Position numbers and translations under genes: made by a program. The notes beneath the pieces were generated by a model that saw nothing but the letters and a program-made list of their open reading frames with translations, did not search any database and had not been told where the DNA came from. Below are positions 9,180-49,502 of a stretch of DNA of 64,000 bases, piece after piece. Position 1 is the stretch's first letter; each line of letters opens with the position of its first letter. The DNA is taken from NCBI GenBank assembly GCA_963709345.1, contig CAVPVX010000004.1, positions 288,001-352,000 of the forward strand, read 5' to 3'. This DNA is from an uncultured Actinomycetes bacterium. Its GTDB lineage: Bacteria; Actinomycetota; Thermoleophilia; UBA2241.

Positions 9180-9205
9180 GATCCTCCTGTGCGGTGGTGG
9201 ATAAC

Positions 9206-9827: not shown

Positions 9828-9864
9828 CGACTGTAACCCGGCGTCTCCTCTTCGCCCGGCGCTC

Positions 9865-10584: not shown

Positions 10585-10674
10585 CCGCGGCGGCTCTGCG
10601 CCGGGGTATCGCAGCTCGTCTTTCCGGCTTCTGACGCTGCCCACCCCGGCTCGCGGGGCGGTATCCTTGGGCGC

Positions 10675-17174: not shown

Positions 17175-17212
17175 CTGTAGGTCCGTGCCCGATCGCTCAC
17201 TCCCCACTTTAC

Positions 17213-17225
17213 TTCGGTTCCCGAA
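17213..17225. promoter_or_regulatory. Putative MarR operator
   Basis: Inverted repeat TTCGG-TTC-CCGAA in the AT-rich patch between divergent marR and fdh. Confidence 0.35.
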
Positions 17226-17372
17226 TACTACGGGTACCTTAGCATACTGCCGGGGTGGGCGAGGGCGCCGGTCCCGCGCTCGCGCGCGGCCGCCCAGTTT
17301 CCGTCGCCGCTCGTCCGCGAGTACACTTGGCGCAGCTGGACGCGTGGAAGCGATCACCGAGGAGACGCGATA

Positions 17373-26389: not shown

Positions 26390-26526
26390 CTATTCTGACT
26401 CCCCCGCTCCAATCCTTCAAGGTCAAGTCAAGGGTTTGGGTTGGTAGAAGGACCGCGCCGGTGGGCCGCTGTCGGAATCGGGGCACGGCTGGCGCCGCCG
26501 CCGGCGTCGGCTATAATCGGTGCCCC

Positions 26527-28913: not shown

Positions 28914-29323
28914 AGGTCACGCAGCTCACCGTGTTTCTCGAGAATCGCAGCGGGCGTCTCGCCGAGGTCGCCGACCTACTGGGCAAGGCGGCCGTCAACA
29001 TCCGCGGGTTCTCGACGACGGAGGCCGCCGAGTACGGGATCGTCCGGCTCATCGTGACCGATCCCCAGGAGGCCAGGCGGCTTCTGCACGACGCCGGGTT
29101 CACGACGCACTTCGCGCAGGTGCTCTGCGTGCGCGTGCCCGACGAGCCGGGCGGGCTCGCGGAGGTGCTCGACCAGCTCGCCGCCGCCGGCGTGTCCGTC
29201 GACTACCTGTACAGCATCTCGTTCCAGAACATCTGCCTCGCGGTGCGCGACATCGACCGCGCGGTCGAGCTGCTCGCCGGCAAGGTGACGCTGCTCGGCG
29301 ACGAGGAGGTGCGGTCCCTGTGA
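28910..29323 (+). CDS. Tandem ACT domain protein
   Basis: 'QLTVFLENRSGRLAEV...NIR', 'PDEPGGLA.VL...V.YLY'. Typical neighbour of iorAB/paaK. Confidence 0.9.
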   Translation: MKVTQLTVFLENRSGRLAEVADLLGKAAVNIRGFSTTEAAEYGIVRLIVTDPQEARRLLHDAGFTTHFAQVLCVRVPDEPGGLAEVLDQLAAAGVSVDYLYSISFQNICLAVRDIDRAVELLAGKVTLLGDEEVRSL

Positions 29324-30669: not shown

Positions 30670-30791
30670 GACCACGCCGGGAACGCGGAGGGAGATCGGC
30701 GGCCGGCTGCCCGGGGTCGCGCCCTTCGCCTCCGGCATGCCGAGGCTCGGCGGCGTTCTTTGCGCCGAGCCCTTTGCTCTCTGCGTGGCGC

Positions 30792-31352
30792 GTGCCTCTT
30801 CCTCTCCACACGTCACGACTCGAGATCCGCCCCTTCGTGGACGGAGACGTCGAGGCGCCGCCCTCGGTGTTCGGCGACCGCGAGGTCATGCGCTACGTCG
30901 GAGCGGCGCGGCGGCCGCTCGATCTTCACCGGCTCCGGGCCTCTCAGGCGCGCATGCGCAAGCACTGGGAGCGGCACGGGTTCGGGCCGCTGGCCGTGGT
31001 GGAGCAGACCTCCGGTCGACTCGTCGGCGAGTCCGGTCTGCAGCTTCTCGAGTCCGGCCCCGAGGTCGAGGTGACGTACACCCTCGCGCGGGCCGTGTGG
31101 GGTCGCGGGTACGCGACCGAGGCCGTCCGCGCCGTGCTTGCTTGGGGGTTCGACGGGCTGAGGCTCCAGCGCCTGGTCGCCGTCGTGTATCCCGAGAAGG
31201 CCGCGTCCCGGCGTGTCGTCGAGAAGGCGCGCATGGTACGGGAGGGCACGCGGTTCCGTTACGGGGCGACGCTCGATCAGGACGGCCTCGGCATCGACGC
31301 GTGGCGGGCCGTGGAGCGGATGCGGACGCCGCCGTCTATAATCGGGGAGTGA
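30792..31352 (+). CDS. GNAT N-acetyltransferase (RimJ/RimL type), possibly decaying
   Basis: 'TSRLEIRPF', 'EVMRY', 'WGRGYATEA', 'ASRRVVEK'. The usual 'N..S' Asn and 'LG' residues are altered. Confidence 0.75.
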   Translation: MPLPLHTSRLEIRPFVDGDVEAPPSVFGDREVMRYVGAARRPLDLHRLRASQARMRKHWERHGFGPLAVVEQTSGRLVGESGLQLLESGPEVEVTYTLARAVWGRGYATEAVRAVLAWGFDGLRLQRLVAVVYPEKAASRRVVEKARMVREGTRFRYGATLDQDGLGIDAWRAVERMRTPPSIIGE

Positions 31353-33250
31353 CTCCGCCCCGTTCAGCCCTGCTTCCACTCCGCGGTCTGCGCCTCGACC
31401 TCTCGCGGCGAACCTGCGTCGAAGAAGAAGTGTCGGCCGACGTGGCGTGGAGTTTCCTCGGCGGCCGCGGCCTGGGCGCGTATCTGGCTCTGCGAGAGAA
31501 ACTGTACGAGGTTCTGCCGCTCTCTCCGGAGAACCAGCTCATCTTCGCTCCGGGACCGCTCACCGGTACCGGAGCGCCGGCCAGCGGCCGCTACAGCGTG
31601 ACCAGCCGTTCGCCGCTCACCGGCACCGTCTTCGACGGCAACTCGGGTGGCAACTTCGGCAACGCCCTCCGGCGCCTGGGCTGGGACTACCTCATCCTCA
31701 CCGGGGCGCTGGACGAACCCGGCTACGTCACCGTAGGCCTGCCCGGCGCCGCGGGCGGCGAGCTGCTGCCCTGCGCCGGCGATGCCGCGATCCACCCGGC
31801 CGGCGCGCTCTGGGGCACGGACGTGCCGGCGACGCTCTCGCGTCTCCGGGAGCTGCACCCGAAGTCCGAGGCCGGGGTCATCGGCCCCGCCGGGGAGCGC
31901 GGCGTCCTCTTCGGCAGCATCGTGAACAACCGCGGCCGCTCCATCGGTCGCGGAGGTCTGGGCACCGTGATGGGGTCCAAGCGTCTCAAGGCTCTCGTCA
32001 TCAGCGGGCACGGCGACCACCGGCCCGCCGTCGCCGACCCCGAGCGGCTCGAGTTCATCGTGTACGAGGCCGAGAAGCTGCTCAAGGCCAACCCCATCAC
32101 CTCGACGGCGCTCCCCGAGTTCGGCACCTCGGTGCTCGTCAACGTGCTGAACCAGGCCGGCGCGATGCCGACCCGGAACCACCGCGAGAGCCAGTTCGAG
32201 GGCGCCGCCGCCATCTCCGGCGAGATGCTCAAGAAGGACCACGTCAACCGCCGCTCTGCCTGCCGCGGCTGCATCATCGGGTGCGCCCGGCGCACCAGCG
32301 CCGGCGGGGAGAGTGGCGAGGGCCCCGAGTACGAGTCCATCTGGGCTCTGGGGGCGGAGTGCGGCGTCGCCGACCTGACGGCGATCGTGCAGGCGAACTA
32401 CGCCTGCAACCGCGCCGGCATGGACACCATCACCATGGGCGTCACCATCGCCTGCGCCATGGACCTCACCGAAGAGGGTCTGCTGTCCGGCGGCCCGCGG
32501 TTCGGCGACGCGCGCGCGATCATCGAGTTGGCCGAGGCCACGGCGACGGGGGAGGGCCTTGGCGCCGAGCTCGGGCTCGGCTCGGCGCGCTTCGCCGCGC
32601 TCCACGGCCGTCCGGATCTGTCGATGAGCGTGAAGGCTCTCGAGGTGCCGGCGTACGATCCCCGCGGCATGAAGGCACAGGGCCTCGCCTACGCGACCAG
32701 CAACCGCGGGGGCTGCCACCTGCGCGCCAACATGCTCGGCCCGGAGATCCTCGGCGTGCCTAAGATGGTCGACCGCTTCGCGACCCTCGGCAAGGCCGGG
32801 CTGCTGATCAACATGCAGAACCTCAACGCCGTGCTCGACTCGCTCAGCGTCTGCAAGTTCACCGCCTTCGCGATGAAGGAGGACTACTACGCGCGCCAGC
32901 TCAGTGCCGTCTGGGGCGAGCCCGTCGAGCCGCAGGAGTTGCTGCTGCTCGGCGAGCGCATCTGGAACGCCGAGCGTCTGTTCAACCTTGCCGCCGGGTT
33001 CACGCGCGCCGACGACACGCTCCCGCCCCGGCTCCTGTACGAGCCTGTGCCGGCCGGGCCCTCCGAAGGCCAGGTGGTAGACTTGCCCCCCATGCTCGAC
33101 GAGTACTACATCTCGCGTGGCTGGGACGGCGGCGGACGGCCTTTGCCGGCCAAGCTCGAGCAGCTCGAGCTGACGGGCCTGGCGGCGGCCGCCGGCGGAG
33201 CCGGCGCGGCTGCGCCACCCGGCCCGGCCGCGGGCGAGGCCGCCCCGTGA
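31349..33250 (+). CDS. aor: Tungsten-containing aldehyde:ferredoxin oxidoreductase family protein
   Basis: 'LGGRGLG', 'SPLTG...DGNSGG', 'GRGGLG.VMGSKRLKA', 'CRGCIIGC', 'GPEYE', 'GMDTI', 'YDPR', 'RGGCH', 'YY..RGW'. TATAAT at 31337, 6 nt before the GTG. Confidence 0.93.
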   Translation: MTPPRSALLPLRGLRLDLSRRTCVEEEVSADVAWSFLGGRGLGAYLALREKLYEVLPLSPENQLIFAPGPLTGTGAPASGRYSVTSRSPLTGTVFDGNSGGNFGNALRRLGWDYLILTGALDEPGYVTVGLPGAAGGELLPCAGDAAIHPAGALWGTDVPATLSRLRELHPKSEAGVIGPAGERGVLFGSIVNNRGRSIGRGGLGTVMGSKRLKALVISGHGDHRPAVADPERLEFIVYEAEKLLKANPITSTALPEFGTSVLVNVLNQAGAMPTRNHRESQFEGAAAISGEMLKKDHVNRRSACRGCIIGCARRTSAGGESGEGPEYESIWALGAECGVADLTAIVQANYACNRAGMDTITMGVTIACAMDLTEEGLLSGGPRFGDARAIIELAEATATGEGLGAELGLGSARFAALHGRPDLSMSVKALEVPAYDPRGMKAQGLAYATSNRGGCHLRANMLGPEILGVPKMVDRFATLGKAGLLINMQNLNAVLDSLSVCKFTAFAMKEDYYARQLSAVWGEPVEPQELLLLGERIWNAERLFNLAAGFTRADDTLPPRLLYEPVPAGPSEGQVVDLPPMLDEYYISRGWDGGGRPLPAKLEQLELTGLAAAAGGAGAAAPPGPAAGEAAP

Positions 33251-37037: not shown

Positions 37038-37580
37038 TCAGGAACCCGGGGCGAGGTCGTCGGCGGAGTCCGGCTCGCCGGCGTCAGGAGAATCCGAGGG
37101 CGCGGGCGTCTCGGCGAGGCCCGCCGGGCCGGCGGGCTCGGCGGGAGCGCCCGGCGAGTCTCCGGCTTGCGGTGCGCCCGGCGAGTCTGCGGCTTCCGGA
37201 GCGCCGGGAGATCCGGGGGCTCCGGCCGTCGCGGCAGCGCTTTCGTCGGTGGCGGCAGCTCCCGCGACGGCGCCCGCGACCGCCGCGGCCTCCACCGTCT
37301 CGCCGCCGCTCGCGGCGGCACCCGGCGCACCCGGCGCGGGCGCCTCGATGGCCGACTTCAGGTCGACGGTCGACTTGAGGTCGCTGACGGTGGACTTGAC
37401 GGAGCTGATCTCGGAAGCGACGTCGTCGAGGCCGAGTTCCGTGCGCGCCGTGGCGGCGGCATTGCGGAACTCGCGGATGCCCTTGCCGAGCGACCGGCCC
37501 ATCTGCGGCAGTTGCTTGGGTCCGAAGACGAGCAACGCCAAGACGAGGACGACGACTATCTCGATGGGTCCGACGTTCAC
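37038..37580 (-). CDS. tatA: TatA/TatB family subunit with a long Ala/Pro/Gly/acidic tail
   Basis: 'GPIEI......ALLVFGPKQLPQMGRSLGKGIREFR', directly upstream of tatC. Confidence 0.88.
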   Translation of the reverse strand: MNVGPIEIVVVLVLALLVFGPKQLPQMGRSLGKGIREFRNAAATARTELGLDDVASEISSVKSTVSDLKSTVDLKSAIEAPAPGAPGAAASGGETVEAAAVAGAVAGAAATDESAAATAGAPGSPGAPEAADSPGAPQAGDSPGAPAEPAGPAGLAETPAPSDSPDAGEPDSADDLAPGS

Positions 37581-37850
37581 AGGAGGGGCACCTCGTTAGG
37601 GGGTATCGTGCCACTCCATCGTACGAGCCGCGGGGCCGCAGGTCAACGCGGCGCACGGCGAGCGTCCAAAGTCGTCGTCCAGATGTGGCCAATGCGTCGC
37701 CCGCTGGCGTGATTCCCCTGCAAAAGGGGGCTTGCCGCACATACCCCCTCCGGTTTCCCCGTCAGTTGCGTCGCGAGAAGCTGCTTTGGTAGAGTACGCC
37801 GACGGTCCGCTCGGTCTCTGGTGGCAGGGGCTCGGGCCATCCACCTTCAG

Positions 37851-38219
37851 ATGACAAGCACATATCTCACCAACTGGTTGTACGTATGGCTGTTCATCGC
37901 CGCCGGCGGTGCGCTGGTCGTTCTCATCCTGCTCTTTTCCAAGCTCATCAACCCGAGTCACCTCACGCCCGAGAAGCTGCAGCCCTACGAGTGCGGCATC
38001 CCTCCGGTCGGCAATCCCTGGCAGCCGTTCGCGGTGCGCTACTTCGTGTACGGGCTCCTGTTCCTGGTGTTCGATGTGGAAGCCGCGTTCCTGTTCCCCT
38101 GGGCGCTCGTCTTCCGCTCGCTGGGCCCGGCCGGGTTCATCGAGATGCTCCTGTTCATCGCCGTGCTGGCCCTCGGGCTTCTGTACGCCTGGCGCAAGGG
38201 GGCTCTCGAGTGGGCGTAG
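37851..38219 (+). CDS. nuoA: NADH-quinone oxidoreductase subunit A
   Basis: 'K..PYECG', 'FLVFDVE..FLFPWA', '[10 protein letters not shown]'. Confidence 0.95.
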
Positions 38220-38779
38220 GCGACTATCTGCCGGAGCGCGTCAAGGCCGTCCGGTATCCCAAGCTCGAGCACTTCAGCGAGCCCAACGTCATCACTACGA
38301 CGGCCGACTTCATCTTCAGCTGGGCGCGCTCGCACTCGGTGTTCCCGTTCACGTACGGCCTCGCCTGCTGCGCCATCGAGATGCTGAGCTCCGGGTTCGC
38401 CCGCTTCGACGTGGCGCGCTACGGCATGGAGGTCTTCCGGCCGACACCGCGCCAGTGCGACCTCATGATCGTCGCCGGTACCGTCAACGAGAAGATGGCG
38501 CCGGTCCTCAAGCGCCTGTACGACCAGATGGCGGAGCCCAAGTGGGTCATCAGCATGGGCGCCTGCGCGACCAGCGGCGGCCCCTTCTACGACGGCTACA
38601 ACGTCGTGAACGGGGTCGACAAGATCGTCCCGGTCGACGTGTACATCCCCGGGTGCCCGCCGCGTCCCGAGGCGCTGTTCCAGGGGCTGCTGGAGCTCCA
38701 GGTCAAGATCCAGCAGCACAAGTTCGTCGCCGAGAAGCCGGCCATCGCCGAGGCCGCCGCACCGGATGGGGAGGCCTGA
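38210..38779 (+). CDS. nuoB: NADH-quinone oxidoreductase subunit B
   Basis: 'GLACCAIEM', '[12 protein letters not shown]', 'MGACA..GG', 'DVYIPGCPP'. Confidence 0.95.
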
Positions 38780-38783
38780 GCGC

Positions 38784-39278
38784 ATGGGTCTCGAGATCGG
38801 CACTCACCCGATGGGCATGGACGAGATCGCGGCGCTGCTTGCCGAGCGCTTCGCCGCCGAGTTCTTTGACGTGCGCGTGCAGGAGCCGGTCACCGTGGTC
38901 GCGCGCTGCGCCCGCGAGAATCTGGCAGGCGTCGCGAGGAGTCTCAAAGAGCATCCGGATGTCGGGTACGAGACCCTCAACTGGATCGCCGGCGTCGACC
39001 ACGTGAAGTACTTCGAGAGCGTGTACCACGTGTACAGCTGGAAGACCAACACCTATCTCGAGCTTCACGTCGAGGTGCCTTGCGCCACGCCCGAGGTCGA
39101 GACCGTCAGCGCTGTATGGCCCGCCGCCGATTGGCACGAGCGCGAGTCCTTCGACATGGTCGGCATCGTCTACACCGGCCATCCCGACCTGCGCCGCATC
39201 CTGCTCAAGGACGACTTCATCGGGCACCCGCTGCGCAAAGACTACGTCGACCTCGCCGAGAACCACCCGCATGTTTGA
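38784..39278 (+). CDS. nuoC: NADH-quinone oxidoreductase subunit C
   Basis: '[17 protein letters not shown]...[10 protein letters not shown]......HPLRKDY'. Confidence 0.95.
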
Positions 39279-40485
39279 CGAGTTCGAGACACCCGAGCCG
39301 GACGAGGCCGTCAAGCTCGCGCTGCGCCGCATCGACGAAGCGACGGCGCGCGGCGAGGGCTCGGACGCCGACGGCCTCGCCTTCAACGAGTTGGTCGTCA
39401 ACATGGGGCCGCAGCATCCCAGCACGCACGGCGTGCTGCGCCTCGTGGTCACGCTTGACGGCGAGTTGGTCAAAGACGTCATCCCGGTCGTCGGCTACCT
39501 GCACCGGTGCAAAGAGAAGCTCGCCGAGCGCCGCACCTACTACCAATACATCCCCATAGTCGATCGCACCGAGTACCTGGCCAGCATCAACTGCGAGTGG
39601 GCCTACGTCATGACCGTCGAGAAGCTCGCCGGCATCCAGCCGACGCGGCGGGCGGAGTTCATCCGCGTCATCACCGGCGAGCTCATGCGCATCGCCAGCC
39701 ACCAGGTCGCCGTCGGCACCTTCACCGCCGACCTCTCGCCGCTGGGCACGGCCATGATCTTCTACATGTTCCGCGACCGTGAGTACATCCTCGACCTCCT
39801 CGAGGAGCTTACGGGCGCGCGCATGATGTTCAACTACTTCCGCTTCGGCGGCGTGCGCTACGACCTGCCGGACGGCTGGACCTCAAGGTGTCGCGCGTTC
39901 ATGAAGAAGCTGCCGAAGCTCATCGACGAGTACGAGTCGCTGGTCGACGACAACGCGATCTTCCTGCAGCGCACCCAGGGCAAGGGCGTCATCACCCAGC
40001 AGGACGTCGTCGACTACGGCATCACCGGACCGTGCGCACGCGCCTCGGCGGTCGCCCACGACCTGCGCCGCACGCGGCCGTACTCGGTGTACCCGGAGCT
40101 CGATTTCGAGGTCTGCACGCTCGACCACGGGGACATCTTCGACCGCTACAAAGTCCGTATGAACGAGATGCGCGAGAGCATCAGGATCGTCGAGCAGTGC
40201 CTGGACATGCTGCCCAAGGGGCCGGTGCAGACCGGCTCGCTGCGCGCTCCCTACGTCATCACGCCGCCGCCCGGCTCCTGCTACGTCGGTCAGGAGAATC
40301 CACGTGGCGAGTACGGCACCTACATCGAGAGCGACGGCTCGAGGTATCCGTACCGGCTCAAGTACCGCGACCCGTGCTTCTGCAACCTGCAGATCTTCCC
40401 CAAGCTCCTCAGCGGCAACAAGATCGCCGACGCGGTGGCCATCTCGGGCAGCATCGACCTCGTCCTCGGAGGCATCGACCGCTAG
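39271..40485 (+). CDS. nuoD: NADH-quinone oxidoreductase subunit D
   Basis: '[15 protein letters not shown]', 'GYLHR..EK', 'DRTEY', 'GE.MRIASH', 'ENPRGE', '[11 protein letters not shown]'. No NiFe CxxC pairs. Confidence 0.95.
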
Positions 40486-41604
40486 ATGGACGTCCTGCTC
40501 GCCATCCTTCGCGCCCTCGCCTTCGTCGTCATCGCCTACACGGTGGTGTTCGTCGCGGCGCTGGTGAACATCGTCTTCGAGCGCCGCGTCCTCGCCTTCA
40601 TGCAGGACCGCCACGGGCCCAACCGCACGGGCCCGCACGGCGTGCTGCAGAGCGTCGCCGACGCCTTCAAGATGATGGGGAAGGAGGACTTTCGCCCGCT
40701 GCTCGCCGACCCGTTCCTGTTCACGCTCGCCCCGGTCATGGTGATGATCGGGGCGGTGGCCGTGCAGTTGGTGCTCCCGTACACGGCCGGCATCACTGCG
40801 ACCGACCTCAACGTCGGCGTCATCTTCATCGTCGCGATCACCAGCTTCACGACGTTGGCGATCCTGCTGGGCGGCTGGTCGTCGCGCAACAAGTACTCCC
40901 TGGTCGGCGCGCTGCGCGCCGCCGCCCAGATGATCAGCTACGAGATCCCCATGATCCTCGGCCTGATCGTCGTCGTCATGGTCGTCGGTTCGTTCAGCGT
41001 CTCCGCCGTTGTCGAGGCGCAGGCCGGCTTCCAGTGGATCGCGTTCTACGCGCCCTTCACCTTCCTGATCTTCTACATCGCCTCGATCGCGGAGCTCAAT
41101 CGCGGCCCCTTCGATCTGCCCGAGTCCGAATCGGAGCTCGTGTCCGGCTACGGCACCGAGTACTCGGGCATGCGCTTCGGCATGTTCTTCCTCAACGAAT
41201 ACGCCGGCATGACCATCATGTCGATGGTCGCCGTGACGCTGTTCTTCGGCGGCTGGCAGGGTCCGTACGACAGCGCCGTGGTGTTCTTGGGCGTGTCGTG
41301 GATAGGCCTCGCCTGGTTCATCCTCAAGACCTACGTGCTCGTCTTCGCCCTGGTCTGGATCCGCCTGTCGCTGCCGCGTCTGCAGGTCGACCAGCTCATG
41401 GGCTTCGCCTGGAAGATCCTCATCCCGCTCGGCCTTGCGAACATCCTCGCCACGGCGGCGGTGATGCTCTGGGTGCCGAGCTGGAAGTGGGGGCTCGCGG
41501 TCTTCAGCTGGGTCGCGCTCCTCGCCTTCGTCGGCCTCTTCGACCCGATCCTCAAGTACCGCCTGCGCAAGCAGCGTGAGCGCCGGCCGGTGGTGAGCGC
41601 CTGA
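40486..41604 (+). CDS. nuoH: NADH-quinone oxidoreductase subunit H
   Basis: 'ERRVLA.MQDRHGPNR.GP.G.LQ..ADA.K', 'ISYE', 'NRGPFDLPESESELVSG...EYSG'. Confidence 0.95.
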   Translation: MDVLLAILRALAFVVIAYTVVFVAALVNIVFERRVLAFMQDRHGPNRTGPHGVLQSVADAFKMMGKEDFRPLLADPFLFTLAPVMVMIGAVAVQLVLPYTAGITATDLNVGVIFIVAITSFTTLAILLGGWSSRNKYSLVGALRAAAQMISYEIPMILGLIVVVMVVGSFSVSAVVEAQAGFQWIAFYAPFTFLIFYIASIAELNRGPFDLPESESELVSGYGTEYSGMRFGMFFLNEYAGMTIMSMVAVTLFFGGWQGPYDSAVVFLGVSWIGLAWFILKTYVLVFALVWIRLSLPRLQVDQLMGFAWKILIPLGLANILATAAVMLWVPSWKWGLAVFSWVALLAFVGLFDPILKYRLRKQRERRPVVSA

Positions 41605-42365
41605 TGCTCGGCATGTTCAAAGCCATGCGCACGACGCTCAAACATCTGCCGATGAAGAAGATCACGGTGCAGTATCCCGAGCAGCGCGATCGCCTGCCGG
41701 AGCGTAGCCGCGGCCTGTTTCGCGTCGTCATCGACCCGGCGAGCGGCGAGCCGCGTTGCCGCGCCTGCACGCTCTGCGAGAGCAACTGCCCGGTGCAGGT
41801 CATCCGCGTCAACTACGAGAGCAAGTACCGGCTCCCCGTGCCCAACGCGGCGCGCGTCGCGGAGGCGCGTCTCGCAGCGCAGACGGGCGTCGACCTCAAG
41901 GAACTGCAGCCGGTGCTCGACGACTACTACGAGCACGGCACCGGTCTCATCGCCATACTGCAGAACGCGCAGGAGGTCTACGGCTATCTGCCGCGCCTGG
42001 TGCTGCAGGAGATCGGTCTGCAGACGGGCGTCTCGCTCAGCCAGATCTACGGCGTCTCGAGCTTCTACAACCAGTTCCGGCTCTCCCCCGTCGGCGAGCA
42101 CATCATCGACGTGTGCCACGGCACCGCCTGCCACGTGGCGGGTGCGGTGCAGATCACCGAGGCCCTCGAGGAGGAGCTCGGCGTCGCCGAGGGCAAGACC
42201 ACGACGGACATGAAGTTCACGCTGTCGTCGGTGGCCTGCATGGGCGCCTGCTCGCAGGCTCCCGTGATGCGCATCGGCGACGCGACCTACGGCGCTCTCA
42301 CCCCCGACAAGACGCGCAAGATCATCCGCGACCTCATGCAAGAGGTCGGCGGTGAGAGGGGGTGA
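41604..42365 (+). CDS. Fusion of the NuoI N-terminal half with a NuoE/HydC-type [2Fe-2S] subunit
   Basis: Residues 1-75 match the NuoI N-terminus: 'TTLKHL..KKITVQYPE...LPERSRG...CRACTLCESNCP'. From about residue 96 it matches NuoE: 'LIAILQ.AQE.YGYLP', 'YGVSSFY.QF', 'CHGTACH', 'VACMGACS.AP'. Confidence 0.9.
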   Translation: MLGMFKAMRTTLKHLPMKKITVQYPEQRDRLPERSRGLFRVVIDPASGEPRCRACTLCESNCPVQVIRVNYESKYRLPVPNAARVAEARLAAQTGVDLKELQPVLDDYYEHGTGLIAILQNAQEVYGYLPRLVLQEIGLQTGVSLSQIYGVSSFYNQFRLSPVGEHIIDVCHGTACHVAGAVQITEALEEELGVAEGKTTTDMKFTLSSVACMGACSQAPVMRIGDATYGALTPDKTRKIIRDLMQEVGGERG

Positions 42366-44278
42366 GCGGAGGCGGCATGGCTGACGAGACCCCGACACCA
42401 CGCGCCGCGACCGACGTGCGTAACGTCAGCGTCGCCGAAGGACCGGACGGCAGGTTCACCGTCAAGGTGTGCGCGGGTACGGCCTGCGTGTTCGCCGGCT
42501 CCCTCGCGGTCTACGACGCGTTCGTCGAGGAGGTCGCGGCCGCCGGGCTGGGAGACAAGGTCGAGGTGAGCATCATCGGGTGCCATGGGCTCTGCTCGAT
42601 GAGTCCGGTCGTGGTGCTCGGCGACGACACGCTCTACGGCCATCTGCGGCCGAAGGACGTCGGCAAGGTCGTCGAGGAGCACCTCAAGGGGGGCGTGCCG
42701 GTCGAGCGGTTCCTCTACAAGGACGCCCAGACCGGCGAACGCATCCGCGACTGGCACGATATCGGCTTCTACAAAGCGCAGACGCGCATCGCGCTCCGCG
42801 ACGTCGGCGTCATCGACCCCGAGAGCATCGACGCCTACCTCGAGCGCGGCGGTTACGAGGCTGCGCGCATGGCGCTCACCGAGAAGACGCCCGAGTGGAT
42901 CATCGAGCACGTCACCGACTCGGGCATCCGCGGTCGCGGCGGCGCGGGGTTCCCGACCGGCGTCAAGTGGAAGTTCGCGGCGCAGTCGAAGAGTGAGATC
43001 AAGTACCTCATCTGCAACGCCGACGAGGGCGACCCCGGCGCGTTCATGGATCGCTCGATCCTCGAGGGCGATCCGCACGCCGTCATCGAGGGCATGCTCA
43101 TCGCCAGCTACGCGATCGGCGCGAGCGAGGGCTACGTGTACGTACGTGCCGAGTACCCGCTCGCGGTCAAGCGCCTCACCATGGCGATAGCCGACGCCGA
43201 GGCGCGCGGCTTCCTCGGCAAGGACGTCTTCGGCACCGGCTGGGAGTTCAGCCTCCACCTCAAGCTCGGCGCCGGCGCGTTCGTCTGCGGCGAGGAGACC
43301 GCCCTGATCGCCAGCATCGAGGGCAAGCGCGGCATGCCGCGCTCACGGCCGCCCTACCCCGCAGTCAGCGGCCTCTGGGGCAAGCCGACCAACATCAACA
43401 ACGTCGAGACGCTCGCCAACATCGCCTGGATCGTCACCCACCCCGCCGCGGCCTACTCGGACCTGGGCATCGACGTCAGCCGCGGCACCAAGGCCTTCAG
43501 CCTGGCCGGCAAGCTCGTCAACGGCGGCCTCGCCGAGGTGCCGATGGGCAGCACGCTGCGCCACGTGATCTTCGACGTCGGCGGCGGCATCAAGGGCGGC
43601 AAGAAGTTCAAGGCCGTGCAGCTCGGCGGTCCGTCCGGGGGCTGCGTGCCGGCGAGCCTGCTCGACACCCCGGTCGACTACGAGAGCCTCGCCGCGACCG
43701 GCGCCATCGTGGGTTCCGGCGGCATGGTCGTCGTCGACGAAGAAACGTGCATGGTCGACCTCGCGCGCTTCTTCCTCGACTTCACGCAGAAGGAATCGTG
43801 CGGCAAGTGCATCCCCTGCCGCCTCGGCACCAAGCGCATGCTCGAGGTCCTCGACCGCATCATCGCCGGCGACGGCCGCGAGGGCGACATCGAGTTGCTT
43901 GAGGAGCTCGGCGCCTACATCATCGAGGGCTCGCTCTGCGCCCTCGGCGGCACCGCTCCGAACCCCGTGCTGACGACCATCAAGTACTTCCGCAGCGAAT
44001 ACGAGGCCCACATCCGCGAGAAGCGCTGTCCGGCCGGGACGTGCAAGTCGCTGATCACGTACTACATCGATCCGGACGCGTGCACCGGCTGCACCCTCTG
44101 CGCCAAGAAGTGCCCGACCTCGTGCATCACCGGCGAGAAGAAGCAGCTGCACGTGATCGACGTCGCGAACTGCATCAAGTGCGACACGTGCCGCCAGGTC
44201 TGCAAGTTCGACGCGGTCAAGGTGCGCTCGGGCATCGAGCAGGCCGTGGCCGGCACCTCCGAAGGGGCTGAGAGCTGA
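42362..44278 (+). CDS. nuoF: NuoF/HydB-type FMN/NADH subunit with an N-terminal thioredoxin-like [2Fe-2S] and C-terminal 2x[4Fe-4S] domains (bifurcating type)
   Basis: 'CAGTAC...GCHGLC', 'GRGGAGFPTG.KW', 'CNADEGDPGAFMDR', 'GAGAFVCGEETAL', 'GGPSGG', 'ESCGKCIPCR', 'HIREKRCPAGTC', 'CTGCTLCAKKCP', 'CIKCDTCRQVC'. Alternative ATG at 42377. Confidence 0.92.
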   Translation: MSGGGMADETPTPRAATDVRNVSVAEGPDGRFTVKVCAGTACVFAGSLAVYDAFVEEVAAAGLGDKVEVSIIGCHGLCSMSPVVVLGDDTLYGHLRPKDVGKVVEEHLKGGVPVERFLYKDAQTGERIRDWHDIGFYKAQTRIALRDVGVIDPESIDAYLERGGYEAARMALTEKTPEWIIEHVTDSGIRGRGGAGFPTGVKWKFAAQSKSEIKYLICNADEGDPGAFMDRSILEGDPHAVIEGMLIASYAIGASEGYVYVRAEYPLAVKRLTMAIADAEARGFLGKDVFGTGWEFSLHLKLGAGAFVCGEETALIASIEGKRGMPRSRPPYPAVSGLWGKPTNINNVETLANIAWIVTHPAAAYSDLGIDVSRGTKAFSLAGKLVNGGLAEVPMGSTLRHVIFDVGGGIKGGKKFKAVQLGGPSGGCVPASLLDTPVDYESLAATGAIVGSGGMVVVDEETCMVDLARFFLDFTQKESCGKCIPCRLGTKRMLEVLDRIIAGDGREGDIELLEELGAYIIEGSLCALGGTAPNPVLTTIKYFRSEYEAHIREKRCPAGTCKSLITYYIDPDACTGCTLCAKKCPTSCITGEKKQLHVIDVANCIKCDTCRQVCKFDAVKVRSGIEQAVAGTSEGAES

Positions 44279-44280
44279 CC

Positions 44281-46755
44281 ATGGCGACCACGGCGGAGAA
44301 CGTACCCCAGACGAAGCCGCGCCCCGGCCAGATCACCCTGACCATCGACGGACAGGAAGTCACCTGCGAGCGCGGCGACACGATCCTCGAGGCTGCGCAG
44401 CGCATCGGCATCCACATCCCGACTCTCTGCTACGAGCCGCGGCTCCCGGCCACCGCCGCCTGCCGCATGTGCATCGTCGAGGTCGAGGGCGCCCGCAAGG
44501 TCGTCCCGAGCTGCTCCTCGGCGGTCAGCGACGGCATGGTCGTGCGCACCAACACCGACAAGGTGCGCGCCATGCGGCACCTGTATCTCGAGCTGCTGCT
44601 CAGCGACCACAACTCGTTCTGCACGCCGCCGTGCCGCGACGCCTGCCCGACGCACATCAAGATCCCGCAGTTCCTCGACTACATCGCTCACAAGGACTAC
44701 AAGAACGGCGTGCGCAAGCTGCGCGAGGATCTGCCCTTCCCGGCCATCTTGGGGCGCGTCTGCCCGCGGCCCTGTGAGGGACCGTGCCGTCGCCAGCTCG
44801 TGGAGCACCCCATCACCATCTGCCAGCTCCACCGCTTCATGGCCGACCAGACCATCGACGAGGAGCAGACCGGCGAGCTGCTGCTGCCGGTCGAGCCGAA
44901 GGCCGACACCGGTAGAAGGATCGCCGTCGTGGGTGGCGGGCCCGCCGGCCTGGCATGCGCGTTCTATGCCCGGCTCGAGGGGCACTCGGTCAAGATCTTC
45001 GAGGCCCTGCCCAAGCCGGGCGGTATGCTCCGCTACGGCATCCCCAGCTACCGCCTGCCGCGCGACCTCCTCGACAAGGAGATCAACGTGCTCTGGCGCA
45101 TGGGTGTCGAGATCCAAGTCGACAGCCGTCTCGGCGTTGACTACCAGCTTGAGGATCTGCTGGGCGAGTACGACGCCGTCTTCCTCGGCCTCGGCGCCTT
45201 CAACAGCAACGACATGCGCATCCCCGGTGAAGACGCCGACGGAGTCGTCACCGCCGTCGACTTCCTCGGCGAGCTCGAGCGCACCGGCGAGGTGCACGTG
45301 GGCAAGAAGGTCACCGTCATCGGTGGCGGCTTCACGGCCATGGACGCCTGCCGCACCGGCTTGCGCAAAGGCGCCGCCGAGGTCACCTGCCTCTACCGCC
45401 GCTCGCGCAAGGAGATGCCGGCGCACCACACCGAGGTCGACGAGGCCGAGGAGGAGGGCGTCAAGCTCGAGCTTCTCTGCGCGCCGCTCCGCGTGCTCAC
45501 CGACGGCGCGAACAAGGTCACCGGCATCGAGATGCAGCGCATGGAGCTGGGCGAGCCCGACGCCTCCGGGCGCCGCCGCCCCGTGCCGGTCGAGGGCTCG
45601 GAGTTCGTCGTCGAGTGCGACCAGGTCATCGCCGCCATCGGCCAGTACCCCAAGCTCGACGGCACCAGCGAGGAACAGGGCGTCAAACGCACCAAGTGGC
45701 GTACGATCGAGGTCGACGACTGGACCTTCCAGACGGATGATCCGCGCGTCTTCGCCGGCGGTGACGCCGTGCTCGGCGCGCAGACGGTGATCCAGGCCGT
45801 GGCGCAGGGCAAGAAGGCCGCCTGGAGCATCGACGCCTTCCTGCGCGGCGCCGACATGCGCGACGTGGGGCAGTCGCTCGCGGAGCTCAAGGCCACGCCG
45901 TTCTTCAACGCGCTGACGAACAAGACGGATCTCGACCCGCGCATCGCGCGAATGGCCGAGATCCCACCCGTGTTCATCGACATGACCACCGACGTGAAGC
46001 ACCCGAGCCCGCCCGCCGAGATGCCCAAGCTCCCCCCCGACGAGCGCAGGACCAACTTCAAGCAGATCGAGCTCGGCTTCAGCGAAGAAGAGGCCGTCCG
46101 CGGCGCCGAGCTCTGCCTCGATTGCTACTGCCCGGCGAACGGCAAGTGCGACCTCCAGCGGTACAGCATCGAGTACGAGGTGTTCAAGAACCGCTTCCAC
46201 GGCGGCGAAGCCCACGACTACCCGGCCGACTTCCGCCACGACTTCATCATGCGCGAGCCCAACCGCTGCATCAATTGCGGGCGCTGCGTGCGCGTCTGCC
46301 GCATGGAGGTGGGCTCGAGCTGCTACGACAACATGGGCCGCGGGTTCGACTCCATCGTCAGCACGGCCGACAATCTGCCGCTGCAGCTGGTCGGCTGCGT
46401 GAGTTGCGGCAAGTGCGCGGAGACCTGCCCGACCGGGTCCATCGAGACCAACCCGCGCCTGCTCGCCAGCTACGACCTGGACGAGAGCCGCTGCATCTTC
46501 TGCGGGGAGTGCGTCGAGGTCTGCCCCTACGACGCGCTCGAGCAGACCGACTACTACGAGCTTGCCGGCTACAATCGCACGACCATGGCGAGGGAGTCGC
46601 TCTACGTGCGTGAGCCGCGCCCCGCCGACCCGCTGCGCGAGACGCTCCCCGACCTCGTGCCGCACGTGCGCGACGCGGTGCTGGGCGCCGGCTGGGTGTG
46701 GGATCCGATCAAGGACGACCCGATCGACCTGGGCGACCCGGAGGAGGCCGGCTGA
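44281..46755 (+). CDS. NuoG-like Fe-S / GltD-like FAD-NADPH oxidoreductase fused to the NuoI C-terminal half
   Basis: 2Fe-2S 'IPTLC..ACRMC..SC'. GltD region 'PPCRDACP', 'GRVCPRPCEGPC', 'GGGPAG', 'GGMLRYGIP.YRLP', 'GGGFTAMD', 'YRRS', 'FAGGD'. Then 'CINCGRCVRVC' and 'CVSCGKCAETCP', and finally the NuoI-type 'YDLDESRCIFCGECVEVCPYDAL....YELAGYNR'. Confidence 0.9.
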   Translation: MATTAENVPQTKPRPGQITLTIDGQEVTCERGDTILEAAQRIGIHIPTLCYEPRLPATAACRMCIVEVEGARKVVPSCSSAVSDGMVVRTNTDKVRAMRHLYLELLLSDHNSFCTPPCRDACPTHIKIPQFLDYIAHKDYKNGVRKLREDLPFPAILGRVCPRPCEGPCRRQLVEHPITICQLHRFMADQTIDEEQTGELLLPVEPKADTGRRIAVVGGGPAGLACAFYARLEGHSVKIFEALPKPGGMLRYGIPSYRLPRDLLDKEINVLWRMGVEIQVDSRLGVDYQLEDLLGEYDAVFLGLGAFNSNDMRIPGEDADGVVTAVDFLGELERTGEVHVGKKVTVIGGGFTAMDACRTGLRKGAAEVTCLYRRSRKEMPAHHTEVDEAEEEGVKLELLCAPLRVLTDGANKVTGIEMQRMELGEPDASGRRRPVPVEGSEFVVECDQVIAAIGQYPKLDGTSEEQGVKRTKWRTIEVDDWTFQTDDPRVFAGGDAVLGAQTVIQAVAQGKKAAWSIDAFLRGADMRDVGQSLAELKATPFFNALTNKTDLDPRIARMAEIPPVFIDMTTDVKHPSPPAEMPKLPPDERRTNFKQIELGFSEEEAVRGAELCLDCYCPANGKCDLQRYSIEYEVFKNRFHGGEAHDYPADFRHDFIMREPNRCINCGRCVRVCRMEVGSSCYDNMGRGFDSIVSTADNLPLQLVGCVSCGKCAETCPTGSIETNPRLLASYDLDESRCIFCGECVEVCPYDALEQTDYYELAGYNRTTMARESLYVREPRPADPLRETLPDLVPHVRDAVLGAGWVWDPIKDDPIDLGDPEEAG

Positions 46756-47264
46756 TGCCCGGCGGCGACTTCCATCCCTGGTTCTTCGTCATCGTCGCCG
46801 CGTGGGTGCTCGTCTGCGGCCTCGGCGTCGTGCTGTTCAAGAAGATCATGTACTCGGCCGTGTCGATGATCTTCTGCTTCCTCGGCGTGGCGTTCGCCTT
46901 CGCGCTGCTCAACGCGCCGCTGGTCGCCGTCCTGCAGATCGTGATCTACGTCGGCGCCATCTCGATCGTCGTGATCTTCGCGATCATGCTCACCGAGGTC
47001 CAGACCGGCGGCTTCGAGCTCTTCTTCAACCGCCAGACGCTGGGCGCGGCCGTCGTCGCCCTCGTCGGCGCCGCGGTCCTCGCCGTGGTCGCCCTGTCGG
47101 CGGACATCGGGGCAGTGGGCGAGAAGTCGCTCACCCCGGGCATCAAGACGCTGTCGCGTCTCATCTTCGACCGGTACGTGCTGCCGTTCGAGTTGGTCTC
47201 GCTGGTGCTGGTGGCGGCCATGATCGGCGCCATCGTCCTCGCGCATCGAGAGGAGGAGCGCTGA
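46755..47264 (+). CDS. nuoJ: NADH-quinone oxidoreductase subunit J
   Basis: 'QIVIYVGAI.IV.IFAIML', 'Y.LPFEL.S.VL..AMIGAI'. Confidence 0.93.
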   Translation: MPGGDFHPWFFVIVAAWVLVCGLGVVLFKKIMYSAVSMIFCFLGVAFAFALLNAPLVAVLQIVIYVGAISIVVIFAIMLTEVQTGGFELFFNRQTLGAAVVALVGAAVLAVVALSADIGAVGEKSLTPGIKTLSRLIFDRYVLPFELVSLVLVAAMIGAIVLAHREEER

Positions 47265-47572
47265 TGGATCCACTCCAGTGGTGGCTGTTGCTCTCGATCC
47301 TGCTCTTCTGCATCGGCGCCTTCGGCGTGCTCGCCCGGCGGAACGTGATCGTCGTCGTCATGAGCCTCGAGATCATGCTCAGCGCGGTGAACATCGCGCT
47401 GGTCGCGACCGCCAACTTCAGGGGCGGCGCGCGTGGCGCCGGCACGCTCTTCGCACTGTTCATGATCGTGCTGGCCGCCTCCGAGGTCACGGTGGGCCTG
47501 GCGATAGTCATCGCCAACTACCGCAACCGGCGCACCGTACAGACCGACACCTACGACGAGCTCAAGGGGTAG
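47264..47572 (+). CDS. nuoK: NADH-quinone oxidoreductase subunit K
   Basis: 'RRNVI...MSLEIML', 'AASE..VGLAI', ending 'LKG'. Confidence 0.93.
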   Translation: MDPLQWWLLLSILLFCIGAFGVLARRNVIVVVMSLEIMLSAVNIALVATANFRGGARGAGTLFALFMIVLAASEVTVGLAIVIANYRNRRTVQTDTYDELKG

Positions 47573-47603
47573 CGAGGAAGCACCGGTGGAGGGGACTCAG
47601 TAC

Positions 47604-49502
47604 ATGAAGATCGCCGTGGCGCTCATCCCGCTGCTGCCGCTGCTCGGCTTCATCGTGACGCTCGTGCTCGGCAAGCGCTGGGGCGCCAGGGCCCACATCC
47701 TTGCGGTCGCGCTCGTCACCGTCTCGGCGGCGCTCAGCATCTACGCCTTCATCTGGGCGTTCACGCATCAGCACGAGACCTTCGTCTGGGACGCCTTCAC
47801 CTGGGTCGCGGCCGGTCGCTTCACCGTCGAGTGGGGTTTCCAGGTCGACACCCTGACCGGCGTCATGCTCCTCGTGGTCGGCATCATCGGCATGGTCGTG
47901 CACTACTACTCGATCGGCTACATGCACGGCGACGAGGGCTACTACCGCTTCTTCGCCTACCTCAACCTGTTCATGTTCGCGATGTTCGTGCTCATCCTCG
48001 CCGACAACTACCTCCTGCTCTTCCTCGGCTGGGAGGGCGTGGGCCTGTGCTCGTACCTGCTGATCGCCTTCTGGTTCCGCAAGAAGAGCGCCAGCCAGGC
48101 GGGCAAGAAGGCCTTCATCGTCAACCGGGTCGGCGACTTCGGCTTCATGCTCGCCATGTTCACCATCTTCACGGCGACCGGCACGCTCCAGTTCAGCGGC
48201 GTCTTCGAGGCCGCCGAGTCCGGCGCGATCGCCGGCGGCACCATGACCTGGATCTGCCTGCTGCTGTTCGCCGGCGCGATCGGCAAGAGCGCCCAGTTCC
48301 CGCTGCACGTGTGGCTGCCGGACGCCATGGAGGGCCCCACGCCGGTCAGCGCGCTCATCCACGCCGCCACGATGGTCAACGCCGGCGTCTACATGGTCGC
48401 GCGCTCGTACCCGCTGTTCATCAGCAGCGAGACGGCGATGCTCGTCGTCATGGGTATCGGCATCTTCACCGCGATCTTCGCGGCCTACATCGCGATCACC
48501 CAGAACGACATCAAGAAGGTGATCGCGTACTCCACCATCTCGTCGCTCGGCTTCATGTTCGTGGCGCTCGGCGCCGGGGCCTGGGTGGCGGGCATCTTCT
48601 ACCTGTTCGCGCACGGCTTCTTCAAGGGACTGCTGTTCCTCTGCTCGGGCTCGGTGATCCACGCCATGGGCGGGGAACAGGACATGCGCAAGATGGGGGG
48701 ACTGCGCAAGAAGCTCCCCATCACCTTCTGGACGATGATGGCCGGCGCCCTCTCCATGGTCGGACTGATCCCCTTCGCAGGCTTCTGGGCCAAGGACGAG
48801 ATCATCGGCGCGACGTTCATCCACGGGTACTACGTGGTGTGGGCGGTGGCGATGGTCGTCGTGCTCCTCACCGCCATCTACATGGGGCGTCTCATGTTCC
48901 TCACCTTCTGGGGCGAGAACCGCTCCGACGCCGAGGTGCAGGCCCATATCCACGAGTCGCCGCCGATCATGACGGTGCCGCTGATCGTCCTCGCGATCCC
49001 TGCCGCCCTGCTCGGCCTCGTCGTCGGCCTGCCGCCCGAGGGAGGCTGGATCCACGACTTCCTGCACCCGGTCTTCTTCGATGTCGAGGGCGAGCCGTTC
49101 CACCTGCTCGGCGAGGGCGGGCTGCTCATGCTCGCCTCCCTCGCCACTGTGCTGGTGGGTCTGTACGTCGCCTACTACCTCTACGTGCGCCAGACGGAGA
49201 TCCCCGGGCGCATCGCCGCGCGCGTTCCCGTCGCCTACAAGGCCAGCCTCAACAAGATGTACATGGACGACATCTACGACGTCGTGCCGATCCGCGCCAC
49301 GCTCGGGTTCGCCGACTGGCTCTGGACCTTCTTCGACGTCAAAGTCATCGACGGCGCCGTCAACGGCATGGCCCGCCTCTGGGGCTGGGCCGGCGACCGC
49401 TTGCGGCCCATCCAGACCGGTCGCGTCCAGAGCTACGCCATGTACATGTTCGCCGGCATGGTGCTTCTCGTGATCGTCTTCGCCTGGGTCTGGGTGAGTT
49501 GA
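47604..49502 (+). CDS. nuoL: NADH-quinone oxidoreductase subunit L
   Basis: 'YSIGYM', 'GWEGVGLCSYLLI', 'NRVGDFG', 'GKSAQFPLHVWLPDAMEGPTPVSALIHAATMV', 'QTGRVQ.Y'. ATG at 47604 with RBS GGAGG. Confidence 0.95.
   Translation: MKIAVALIPLLPLLGFIVTLVLGKRWGARAHILAVALVTVSAALSIYAFIWAFTHQHETFVWDAFTWVAAGRFTVEWGFQVDTLTGVMLLVVGIIGMVVHYYSIGYMHGDEGYYRFFAYLNLFMFAMFVLILADNYLLLFLGWEGVGLCSYLLIAFWFRKKSASQAGKKAFIVNRVGDFGFMLAMFTIFTATGTLQFSGVFEAAESGAIAGGTMTWICLLLFAGAIGKSAQFPLHVWLPDAMEGPTPVSALIHAATMVNAGVYMVARSYPLFISSETAMLVVMGIGIFTAIFAAYIAITQNDIKKVIAYSTISSLGFMFVALGAGAWVAGIFYLFAHGFFKGLLFLCSGSVIHAMGGEQDMRKMGGLRKKLPITFWTMMAGALSMVGLIPFAGFWAKDEIIGATFIHGYYVVWAVAMVVVLLTAIYMGRLMFLTFWGENRSDAEVQAHIHESPPIMTVPLIVLAIPAALLGLVVGLPPEGGWIHDFLHPVFFDVEGEPFHLLGEGGLLMLASLATVLVGLYVAYYLYVRQTEIPGRIAARVPVAYKASLNKMYMDDIYDVVPIRATLGFADWLWTFFDVKVIDGAVNGMARLWGWAGDRLRPIQTGRVQSYAMYMFAGMVLLVIVFAWVWVS

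Follow-up and report, generated by a model that had tools for sequence, protein, structure and literature searches.

In the current view, complex I acquired the head that oxidises NADH a single time, through recruitment of NuoEFG. A different kind of head was envisaged by Schut et al. (2022), who predicted 'Nuo-Bfu' complexes in which NADH and reduced ferredoxin are oxidised with menaquinone while protons are pumped, and who placed them in Deferribacteres, Proteobacteria, Planctomycetes and Nitrospirae, in BfuB clades 38/39 (PMC9304861), the only paper of the full-text literature searched in which the term was found. Here we describe a complex I operon in a window of 64,000 nucleotides (positions 288,001 to 352,000 of contig CAVPVX010000004.1 in assembly GCA_963709345.1; 'the window' denotes this whole stretch) from an uncultured Thermoleophilia bacterium, in which what is by its predicted products a complete Nfn-Bfu/Stn cassette, consisting of BfuC, BfuB and BfuA, interrupts nuoI in an operon whose order is in all other respects that of the 11-subunit type, A-B-C-D-H-I-J-K-L-M-N. 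The best solved matches for all three head proteins are NfnABC and StnABC (9bov, 8oh5, 9n5u), with which the head shares the ligands for B1, the flavin mononucleotide (FMN) core, C1, B2, B3/B4 and A1-A4 as well as a GltD/NfnL-like flavin adenine dinucleotide (FAD) domain with its clusters. Whereas NfnABC and StnABC are soluble, the head genes of the window reside inside the nuo operon, with BfuC carrying the N-terminal half of NuoI and BfuA its C-terminal half. We hold this architecture, a Bfu cassette within the nuoI of a complex I, to be highly probable, and it appears to reflect another route taken in this lineage, where an 11-subunit core has received a whole bifurcating-type transhydrogenase inserted in its core iron-sulfur subunit.

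The operon comprises 13 genes on the forward strand in the order nuoA, B, C, D, H, a gene for a 253-residue protein, one for a 638-residue protein, one for an 824-residue protein, and nuoJ, K, L, M, N. All ten of NuoA, B, C, D, H, J, K, L, M and N match Pfam or NCBIfam models, with the scores of NuoB, D, H, K, L, M and N exceeding the curated cut-offs, and neighbouring genes abut or overlap at 41604, 42362-42365 and 46755, consistent with a single operon. Its genes are as follows:

37821..38219, + strand: nuoA; NCBIfam NuoA models, E 9e-30; start uncertain, with the match beginning at residue 11
38216..38779, + strand: nuoB; PF01058, TIGR01957 231 bits (cut-off 142.7); start approximate, the open reading frame (ORF) 37886-38779 being over-extended at its 5' end
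38766..39278, + strand: nuoC; PF00329, E 4.6e-39
39271..40485, + strand: nuoD; NF004739 444 bits (cut-off 360)
40486..41604, + strand: nuoH; NF004741 336.5 bits (cut-off 305)
41604..42365, + strand: fusion of the NuoI N-terminal half with BfuC, 253 residues
42362..44278, + strand: BfuB of the HydB/NfnB/StnB type, 638 residues; GTG start, overlapping the stop codon of the preceding gene
44281..46755, + strand: fusion of BfuA with the NuoI C-terminal half, 824 residues
46755..47264, + strand: nuoJ; NCBIfam NuoJ models; its ATG shares one base with the preceding TGA
47264..47572, + strand: nuoK; PF00420, NF004320 101.9 bits (cut-off 57); start approximate
47586..49502, + strand: nuoL; NF005141 734 bits
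49504..51090, + strand: nuoM; TIGR01972 609 bits
51091..52626, + strand: nuoN; TIGR01770 411 bits

The operon contains neither a separate nuoG nor a separate nuoI, and no other NuoI-like match was found near the single nuo operon of the genome. In the 253-residue protein, residues 1-74 constitute the N-terminal half of NuoI with the first CxxCxxCxxxCP motif at C52-C62, followed by a linker and a NuoE-type domain of the BfuC/NfnC/HydC type (residues 104-244, PF01257) that provides the C1 [2Fe-2S] ligands C171, C176, C212 and C216, and its nearest solved chains are NfnC 9n5u_C (E 1.6e-47), 9bov_C and the StnC-equivalent 8oh5_A. The 824-residue protein is, over residues 17-723, a BfuA of the NfnA/StnA type with a [2Fe-2S] cluster site A1, a His-ligated A2, a ferredoxin domain with A3/A4 and a GltD/NfnL-like FAD/NADP(H) domain with clusters that is inserted after the A2 cluster (PF07992, PF14691), and it matches NF009454 with 639 bits, below the cut-off of 916. 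Residues 17-744 align with 9bov_A (E 2.4e-190), 8oh5_C and 9n5u_A, the query match ending at residues ~723-744, and 9bov_A (1178 residues) and 8oh5_C (1172 residues) are matched only up to chain residues ~698. Unlike the NfnA and StnA chains, the BfuA of the window lacks the Fdh/NuoG-like C-terminal domain with A5, and Pfam detects no Molybdopterin family in the protein. At the point where A5 would begin in the alignment with the solved chains, about 20 residues past the A4 motif, starts the C-terminal half of NuoI (residues 724-~775), which carries CIFCGECVEVCP at C738-C748 and is followed by a tail. Since positions 2-66 of the NuoI model TIGR01971 match residues 8-74 of the 253-residue protein and positions 69-115 match residues 724-770 of the 824-residue protein, the two pieces are exactly complementary. 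In a canonical NuoI of the same class, only ~26 residues separate the two Cys motifs.

The same set of genes could instead specify two separate enzymes, a soluble Nfn-type transhydrogenase that happens to be encoded inside the nuo operon and an 11-subunit complex I beside it, and the same clade does contain a related gene for a soluble StnA-like protein that carries a molybdopterin domain (L039 type). This would, however, leave complex I without an intact nuoI in the genome's single nuo operon, and NuoI sequence exists there solely as two halves, one fused in frame with BfuC and the other with BfuA, fusions that are kept in all assessable relatives; we thus regard two enzymes as extremely improbable.

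The 638-residue protein had been singled out in a preliminary description of the window for HydB-type signatures that distinguish it from respiratory NuoF, and its domains, motifs, scores against solved chains and the contrast to a canonical NuoF all bear this out. Pfam assigns an N-terminal thioredoxin-like [2Fe-2S] domain (residues 27-106, PF01257, E 3.7e-10), the Nuo51 FMN domain (residues 184-355, PF01512), the NADH_4Fe-4S iron-sulfur region of NuoF (residues 466-550, PF10589) and a C-terminal 4Fe-4S dicluster domain (residues 567-620, Fer4 families). The following sites are recognised in BfuB, where the metal or cluster held by B5 and B2 cannot be read from the sequence:

B5 site: C37, C42, C74, C78
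B2/Zn site: C428, C463, H550, C556, C561
B1 site: C480, C483, C486, C526
B3/B4 sites: C574-C584, C604-C614
FMN/NAD(H) core: NuoF-like

All strings quoted in the preliminary description (NADEGDPGAFMDR, GGPSGG, GCVP, TCMV and HIREKRCPAGTC) are present in the translation and match NfnB (9bov_B), StnB (8oh5_B) and NiFe-HydB (7t2r_B) column by column, enzyme names that we partly presume, as the molecule names given by the depositors are generic. The N-terminal four-Cys site, GGPSGGC, ETCMVD and the B1 motif are in register with these three chains, and so are AHIREKRCPAGTC and both CxxCxxCxxxC motifs. At B5 the window protein has four Cys like 7t2r_B, whereas 9bov_B and 8oh5_B have three. A comparison with all solved structures, scored in bits, gave these values for BfuB:

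9bov_B, NfnB of C. saccharolyticus: 796.6 bits
8oh5_B, StnB of S. ovata: 794.1 bits
7t2r_B, NiFe-HydB: 790.4 bits
9n5u_B, NfnB: 769.9 bits
7q4v, 8a6t and 7p5h, HydB chains of [FeFe]-hydrogenases: 658-763 bits
6vw7_B, beta subunit of NAD-formate dehydrogenase: 440 bits
2fug_1, NuoF of Thermus: 405 bits

With an E of 1.7e-238 for the best solved chain and ligands kept in 33-34 of 34 orthologues at identities down to 48%, a chance likeness is excluded. The canonical NuoF of a genome of the same class (L083) has NADEMEPGTFKDR and GGASTDF, ends just past the B1 region and contains no ferredoxin domain, and the claimed contrast to respiratory NuoF holds on these grounds. The phylogeny proposed in the preliminary description was carried out in part and places BfuB with Bfu-type B subunits, away from the one short NuoF homologue of non-bifurcating type that was included, in agreement with the similarity to solved chains. 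At the sequence level, BfuB is in every respect a Bfu B subunit, and motifs, solved chains and the surrounding nuo genes together confirm that a subunit of HydB/BfuB type belongs to a complex I operon. For such a protein within such an operon, a connection of ferredoxin, NADH and quinone can reasonably be read from the sequence. The head envisaged in the preliminary description was right with respect to this subunit but missed that the 'NuoG' partner is of the NfnA/StnA type with an FAD/NADP(H) domain and that NuoI is split.

The architecture is shared by numerous relatives. A query with the 824-residue protein returned 583 related stretches in contigs of one genome per species, the best 80 of which correspond to 68 loci, and 61 of these (L001-L061) are from metagenome-assembled genomes titled Thermoleophilia, Actinomycetota or Actinomycetes. 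Within this set, BfuA is followed by the NuoI C-terminal half and nuoJ in all 53 assessable loci (53 of 61, from the best 80 of 583 stretches), the remainder being four loci cut by a contig end and four with a paralogue. The NuoI N-terminal half and BfuC are encoded in a single frame in 43 of the 45 loci with a match to the 253-residue protein, with one of the two exceptions cut by the contig start and the other in pieces, one of which still spans the junction. A sample of 401 genomes of the class gave 150 listed matches and 335 further ones. Among those listed, a match spanning the junction (from residue 1 to at least residue 95) occurs in the window genome and, for the remaining 79 genomes of its family, in 68, with one further genome carrying it in two pieces; no other family has it among the 150 listed. 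This tally includes one unpublished genome (G344), which gave only a canonical-type match.

Among orthologues with identities down to 48-57%, the iron-sulfur ligands are kept in 33-34 of 34 for BfuB, in 39 of 39 for the NuoI-N/BfuC protein, including all eight of its Cys, and in 36 of 36 for the BfuA/NuoI-C protein. In BfuB, the Cys of B5 and B1, C428 and the eight Cys of B3/B4 are each found in 34 of 34 sequences, and C463, H550, C556 and C561 of the B2 site in 33 of 34. Within BfuB, conservation is highest in the B3/B4 domain, at 84% mean identity (minimum 66%) compared to 77% for the FMN core, and the two NuoI halves show mean identities of 86% and 83%. A word-based search found the NuoI-N/BfuC fusion in 188 protein clusters, for which the source names go no further than NuoE or 'NAD(P)H-dependent oxidoreductase subunit E'. 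When residues 690-824 of the 824-residue protein were searched against 1.84 billion representatives, 173 matches with E up to 1e-10 were obtained, with just two full-length fused clusters among them (P0123, 816 residues; P0126, 822 residues) and the others being fragments and Por-type forms (P0180, 1049 residues); since these entries carry neither names nor taxa, the search adds little on distribution. Two trivial explanations of the locus were rejected, an assembly chimera because the identical layout is found in dozens of independent assemblies, and a pseudogene because the window copy is free of frameshifts and its ligands are invariant.

With respect to described systems, the operon shares with Nuo-Bfu the placement of BfuABC genes in the middle of a nuo cluster in lieu of NuoEFG and the same proposed energetic logic. 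However, Nuo-Bfu as described there has 14 separate subunits A-N, whereas the operon of the window has 13 genes, a split NuoI and an Nfn-type BfuA, and the description of Nuo-Bfu, as far as it extends, mentions neither a GltD/NADP(H) domain nor a split NuoI (PMC9304861). The words 'Actinobacteria', 'fused' and 'fusion' do not occur in the main text of this paper. On the basis of gene content and domain order, the operon fits the Nuo-Bfu idea but not its described form. Compared to canonical complex I (Nqo1-15 of T. thermophilus; the operon of L083), curated models are matched by both the NuoB/C/D/H quinone module and the membrane arm, and homology extends to the core of NuoF type, the NuoE-like protein and the N-terminal clusters of NuoG type. 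The operon differs by its gene order A-B-C-D-H-...-J, the two-piece NuoI and the absence of the NuoG C-terminal domain, and it has in addition the FAD/NADP(H) domain and the sites B2, B3, B4 and B5. Neither a split NuoI nor an Nfn-type head on complex I is described in the full-text literature searched, although the supplementary tables of PMC9304861 may list such genomes. The nuo genes of a Thermoleophilia metagenome-assembled genome are merely listed in the relevant part of one paper (PMC9326234), and in Mbx-like operons, a different system, a GltD-like protein is stated to replace NuoI (PMC4758237). The combination of split NuoI and Nfn-type head is apparently an undescribed form of the printed Nuo-Bfu idea. 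As no gene is annotated as nuoI or nuoG, annotation pipelines may score such genomes as missing either.

The features of the head suggest how it could operate. BfuC, BfuB and BfuA would assemble as in NfnABC, judging from the solved relatives, with B1-FMN-C1 as bifurcating site, the B3/B4 domain of BfuB as docking site of ferredoxin, the FMN of BfuB as NAD(H) site and the GltD-like FAD of BfuA as NADP(H) site. The putative FMN, FAD and B3/B4 sites of the cassette would thus serve three soluble substrates, NAD(H), NADP(H) and ferredoxin, with NADPH as the third because the 'NuoG' partner is of the NfnA/StnA type with its GltD-like FAD/NADP(H) domain. Electrons from NADPH would enter at the FAD of BfuA and run along A7-A6-A3-A2-A1, a path that is described for NfnABC of C. 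saccharolyticus, and in the same account A2-A4-A5 is a non-functional dead-end side branch of the soluble NfnA (PMC11829005). Because the NuoI C-terminal half replaces the A5-bearing domain about 20 residues after A4, this dead end may have become the exit towards the quinone, with the A2-A4 branch of BfuA predicted to continue via N6a/N6b and N2 to menaquinone.

Each of the clusters in a two-cluster ferredoxin fold is ligated by three Cys of one motif and by a fourth Cys that belongs to the other. The two NuoI halves are expected to fold together as the usual two-cluster ferredoxin domain (N6a/N6b), in which case, with the fourth Cys coming from the opposite motif, both clusters would be ligated by both polypeptides, and two covalent links through the NuoI halves would tether the Bfu module to the quinone module. 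Co-folding of residues 1-100 of the 253-residue protein with residues 650-824 of the 824-residue protein and four 4Fe-4S clusters, with alignments supplied, gave a predicted structure with a score of 0.34 compared to 0.00 for the best of three controls, a result classed as 'weak support' and not counted as evidence. Of 157 solved complexes, 116 attained the mark applied in this procedure, as did 2 of 215 mismatches; those that passed at or below 0.60 were 18 of the 157 solved complexes and both of these mismatches. The runs share at least 66% of contacts, but no interface is given, and a predicted local distance difference test score of ~48-50 for the partner leaves its own fold uncertain; as intact NuoI is part of many solved structures, the pass could also reflect memory.

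In its net mode, the complex would act as a proton-pumping menaquinone reductase that oxidises NADH and reduced ferredoxin by confurcation at B1-FMN-C1, and also NADPH, and the resulting menaquinol would in this anaerobe feed a fumarate reductase or cytochrome bd. We assign a probability of about 0.55 to this reading of a proton-pumping menaquinone reductase fed by NADH, reduced ferredoxin and NADPH, and consider the coupling of the complex I head to ferredoxin, taken by itself, to have even odds. The reading finds a plausible setting in the genome, which at 3.11 Mb in 11 contigs is 98% complete and contains one full-length match each for NuoA, B, C, D, H, J, K, L, M and N, making the operon its sole complex I. 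The genome encodes a futalosine-type MqnA/D gene adjoining a UbiA prenyltransferase, cytochrome bd and a Sdh/Frd flavoprotein, as well as an enzyme of the pyruvate:ferredoxin oxidoreductase (PFOR) type and three [FeFe]-hydrogenase clusters whose partners are of the NuoE/NuoF type, and neither RnfD nor a haem-copper oxidase, NrfD or NarI was found in it at this completeness. By its gene complement, the organism looks like a fermenting anaerobe that produces much reduced ferredoxin and has no other ion-pumping route to oxidise it. If ferredoxin coupling is true, the complex would be a membrane proton pump run jointly by NADH and ferredoxin with a port for NADPH, which would bear on the balance of three redox pools in anaerobes that lack Rnf.

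A second family of Thermoleophilia (f6) offers an informative comparison. Here, the NuoI N-terminal half heads ORFs of 458-797 residues in 23 of 24 genomes, among the matches listed, and three genomes (G024, G006 and G030; L080-L082) show nuoA-B-C-D-H followed by one fused gene, a gene for BfuA with the NuoI C-terminal half, and nuoJ-N. In one of them (L082), the fused protein of 617 residues consists of the NuoI N-terminal half, a vestigial N-terminal part of NuoE and a NuoF core, and Pfam detects only the FMN and B1 families in it, with no thioredoxin-like [2Fe-2S] domain and no C-terminal dicluster. BfuA with its GltD domain and the NuoI C-terminal half is retained. The missing parts are B5 (N-terminal in BfuB), B3/B4 (C-terminal in BfuB) and C1 (C-terminal in BfuC), three domains that form the ferredoxin-binding tripod in the account of C. 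saccharolyticus NfnABC (PMC11829005). Since the f6 form lacks exactly these three, their presence in the family of the window is the main ground for thinking that the ferredoxin-side domains are retained there for a function, and together with the covalent tethers, the trimmed sister form provides a natural pair for probing the extra Bfu domains. One f6 genome contains a canonical 14-subunit nuo operon in addition (L083).

The trimmed form can also be read in the opposite sense, as it illustrates that a split-NuoI head can exist without Bfu-specific domains. As the transfer of electrons from NAD(P)H to menaquinone is by established thermodynamics exergonic in itself, the complex of the window could be a plain NAD(P)H:menaquinone oxidoreductase, in which B3/B4, B5, B2 and the mobile C1 are inherited scaffolding and ferredoxin is no substrate. 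However, the domains that are absent in f6 are fully kept here, with the eight Cys of B3/B4, the most conserved domain, in every orthologue, whereas true NuoF, as exemplified by the canonical protein of L083 and as described in a published account (PMC11829005), has lost them, and the genome contains several ferredoxin-reducing enzymes and no detected Rnf. We thus consider a plain oxidoreductase rather unlikely.

A number of points weigh against the proposed confurcating menaquinone reductase. The conservation of the Bfu domains (B3/B4, B5, C1) could reflect folding or assembly rather than ferredoxin chemistry. There is no thermodynamic need to confurcate, since menaquinone is far more positive than NAD, and either NADH or NADPH alone could power the pump. 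Electrons reach NuoI of canonical complex I from the His-ligated N5, the equivalent of A2, and not from an A4-type cluster. The NADP(H) specificity is read from the likeness to NfnA/StnA alone (the ...LYRRSRKEMPA stretch) and is in this respect provisional. In the trees, which were quick constructions with support from the Shimodaira-Hasegawa-like approximate likelihood ratio test (SH-aLRT) only and with long branches flagged, the Nuo-embedded BfuA is sister to a soluble StnA-like paralogue (SH-aLRT 99) and not to that of f6, and the B subunit of f6 forms a long branch outside the Bfu-type B subunits. Due to these positions of the f6 BfuA and BfuB, it is not established that f6 lost the domains, and a separate origin of its form is possible.

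Electrons could also take another course, either in a bifurcation driven by NADH or NADPH, in which one electron runs downhill to menaquinone as the high-potential acceptor and the other is pushed up to ferredoxin, or in a reverse flow from menaquinol, driven by the proton motive force, that generates reduced ferredoxin or NADPH. Quinone-driven ferredoxin reduction and reverse flow were the examples offered in the preliminary description, and the domain set permits them, but nothing observed favours them. Bifurcation with a quinone acceptor has been reported for the EtfABCX of Thermotoga, where NADH is coupled in this manner to menaquinone and ferredoxin (PMC10734219). Conversely, the published Bfu model has the A branch bring mid-potential electrons into the site where they are divided between NAD and ferredoxin (PMC11829005), a rough estimate leaves little energy if NADH had to pay for both pumping and ferredoxin reduction, and the organism has many other ferredoxin reducers, making either course improbable.

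A related insertion is found in a second enzyme of the same genome. A 2-oxoacid:ferredoxin oxidoreductase cluster (L077, contig C7:455001-470000, ~2604-10756) harbours an Nfn-type Bfu cassette in its ferredoxin part, in the order PorG, PorA, one CxxCxxCxxxCP motif fused to BfuC, BfuB, and a BfuA of 1088 residues, in which a GltD domain is succeeded by another CxxCxxCxxxCP motif and by a PorB-type thiamine pyrophosphate (TPP) domain. The public representative P0180 of 1049 residues has the same domain order as this BfuA, and the Nuo, f6 and Por forms can be aligned with one another over the region that starts at the A4 motif and includes the half-ferredoxin motif. PorA, BfuC and BfuB of the cluster read with frameshifts, and BfuB with one in-frame stop, which may be assembly errors. 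Whereas Por-Bfu is described with separate subunits A-G (Schut et al., 2022), the Por cassette is fused here; it has the same split-ferredoxin plug as the nuo operon but in a different host, the 2-oxoacid:ferredoxin oxidoreductase. The cassette with its half-ferredoxin ends may be a reusable plug. In its widest form, which we advance tentatively and hold to be somewhat doubtful, this view would see a portable plug in at least two host enzymes of this genome, in NuoI and in the delta-type ferredoxin of Por, and a complex I that is a four-substrate machine for NADH, NADPH, ferredoxin and menaquinone, which confurcates NADH and ferredoxin onto quinone and constitutes the sole ion-pumping outlet for ferredoxin.

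Several further proteins of this class resemble parts of the head. The StnA-like BfuA with a molybdopterin domain, the paralogue of the Nuo-embedded BfuA, is found in four Thermoleophilia loci (L039, L041, L044 and L046), where it shows 65-66% identity over residues 18-742 and has no BfuB or BfuC within 8 kb; in L039 it reads as two ORFs (859+548 residues). In the genome of the window, the closest paralogue consists of BfuC and BfuB (L079, contig C3:8001-26000, ~8046-10691, minus strand; 57% and 59-77% identical), adjoins folD with no BfuA beside it, and has a BfuB that reads in several frames. Another locus (L076, contig C7:295001-315000) holds two [FeFe]-hydrogenase clusters, one with a BfuB of 1017 residues fused to a GltD-like domain and the other with a short NuoF-like protein of 398 residues without extra clusters, and between them a HydS-like sensory hydrogenase fused to a histidine kinase, plus response regulators. 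The window itself encodes an FdhA/NuoG-like protein of 893 residues (17373-20054, + strand) with a [2Fe-2S] site, NuoG-type clusters and molybdopterin domains, with no NuoE/NuoF-type gene adjoining; an ORF on the opposite strand (14991-18425) overlaps it, the 5' part of this ORF being probably spurious.

Reads from three expression runs (two recorded as RNA, one guessed) gave shares of 0.05-0.08 of sampled words, and the contigs derived from them are relatives at 85-99% likeness. One contig of 565 letters with 67 differences covers 41236-41800 and spans the boundary between nuoH and the NuoI-N/BfuC gene, and another covers 41569-41813; since DNA may be present in such libraries, these reads do not show transcription. 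A group of genes for ferredoxin-linked enzymes is located 5-11 kb upstream of nuoA (26368-33250, + strand) and encodes a protein like indolepyruvate:ferredoxin oxidoreductase (IOR), with POR_N, TPP_enzyme_C and Fer4 domains, as well as an AMP-binding ligase and an aldehyde:ferredoxin oxidoreductase (AOR). Directly upstream of nuoA and divergent from it is a gene of the TatA/E type (37038-37580, - strand), whose product of 180 residues has a long Ala/Pro-rich C-terminal tail.

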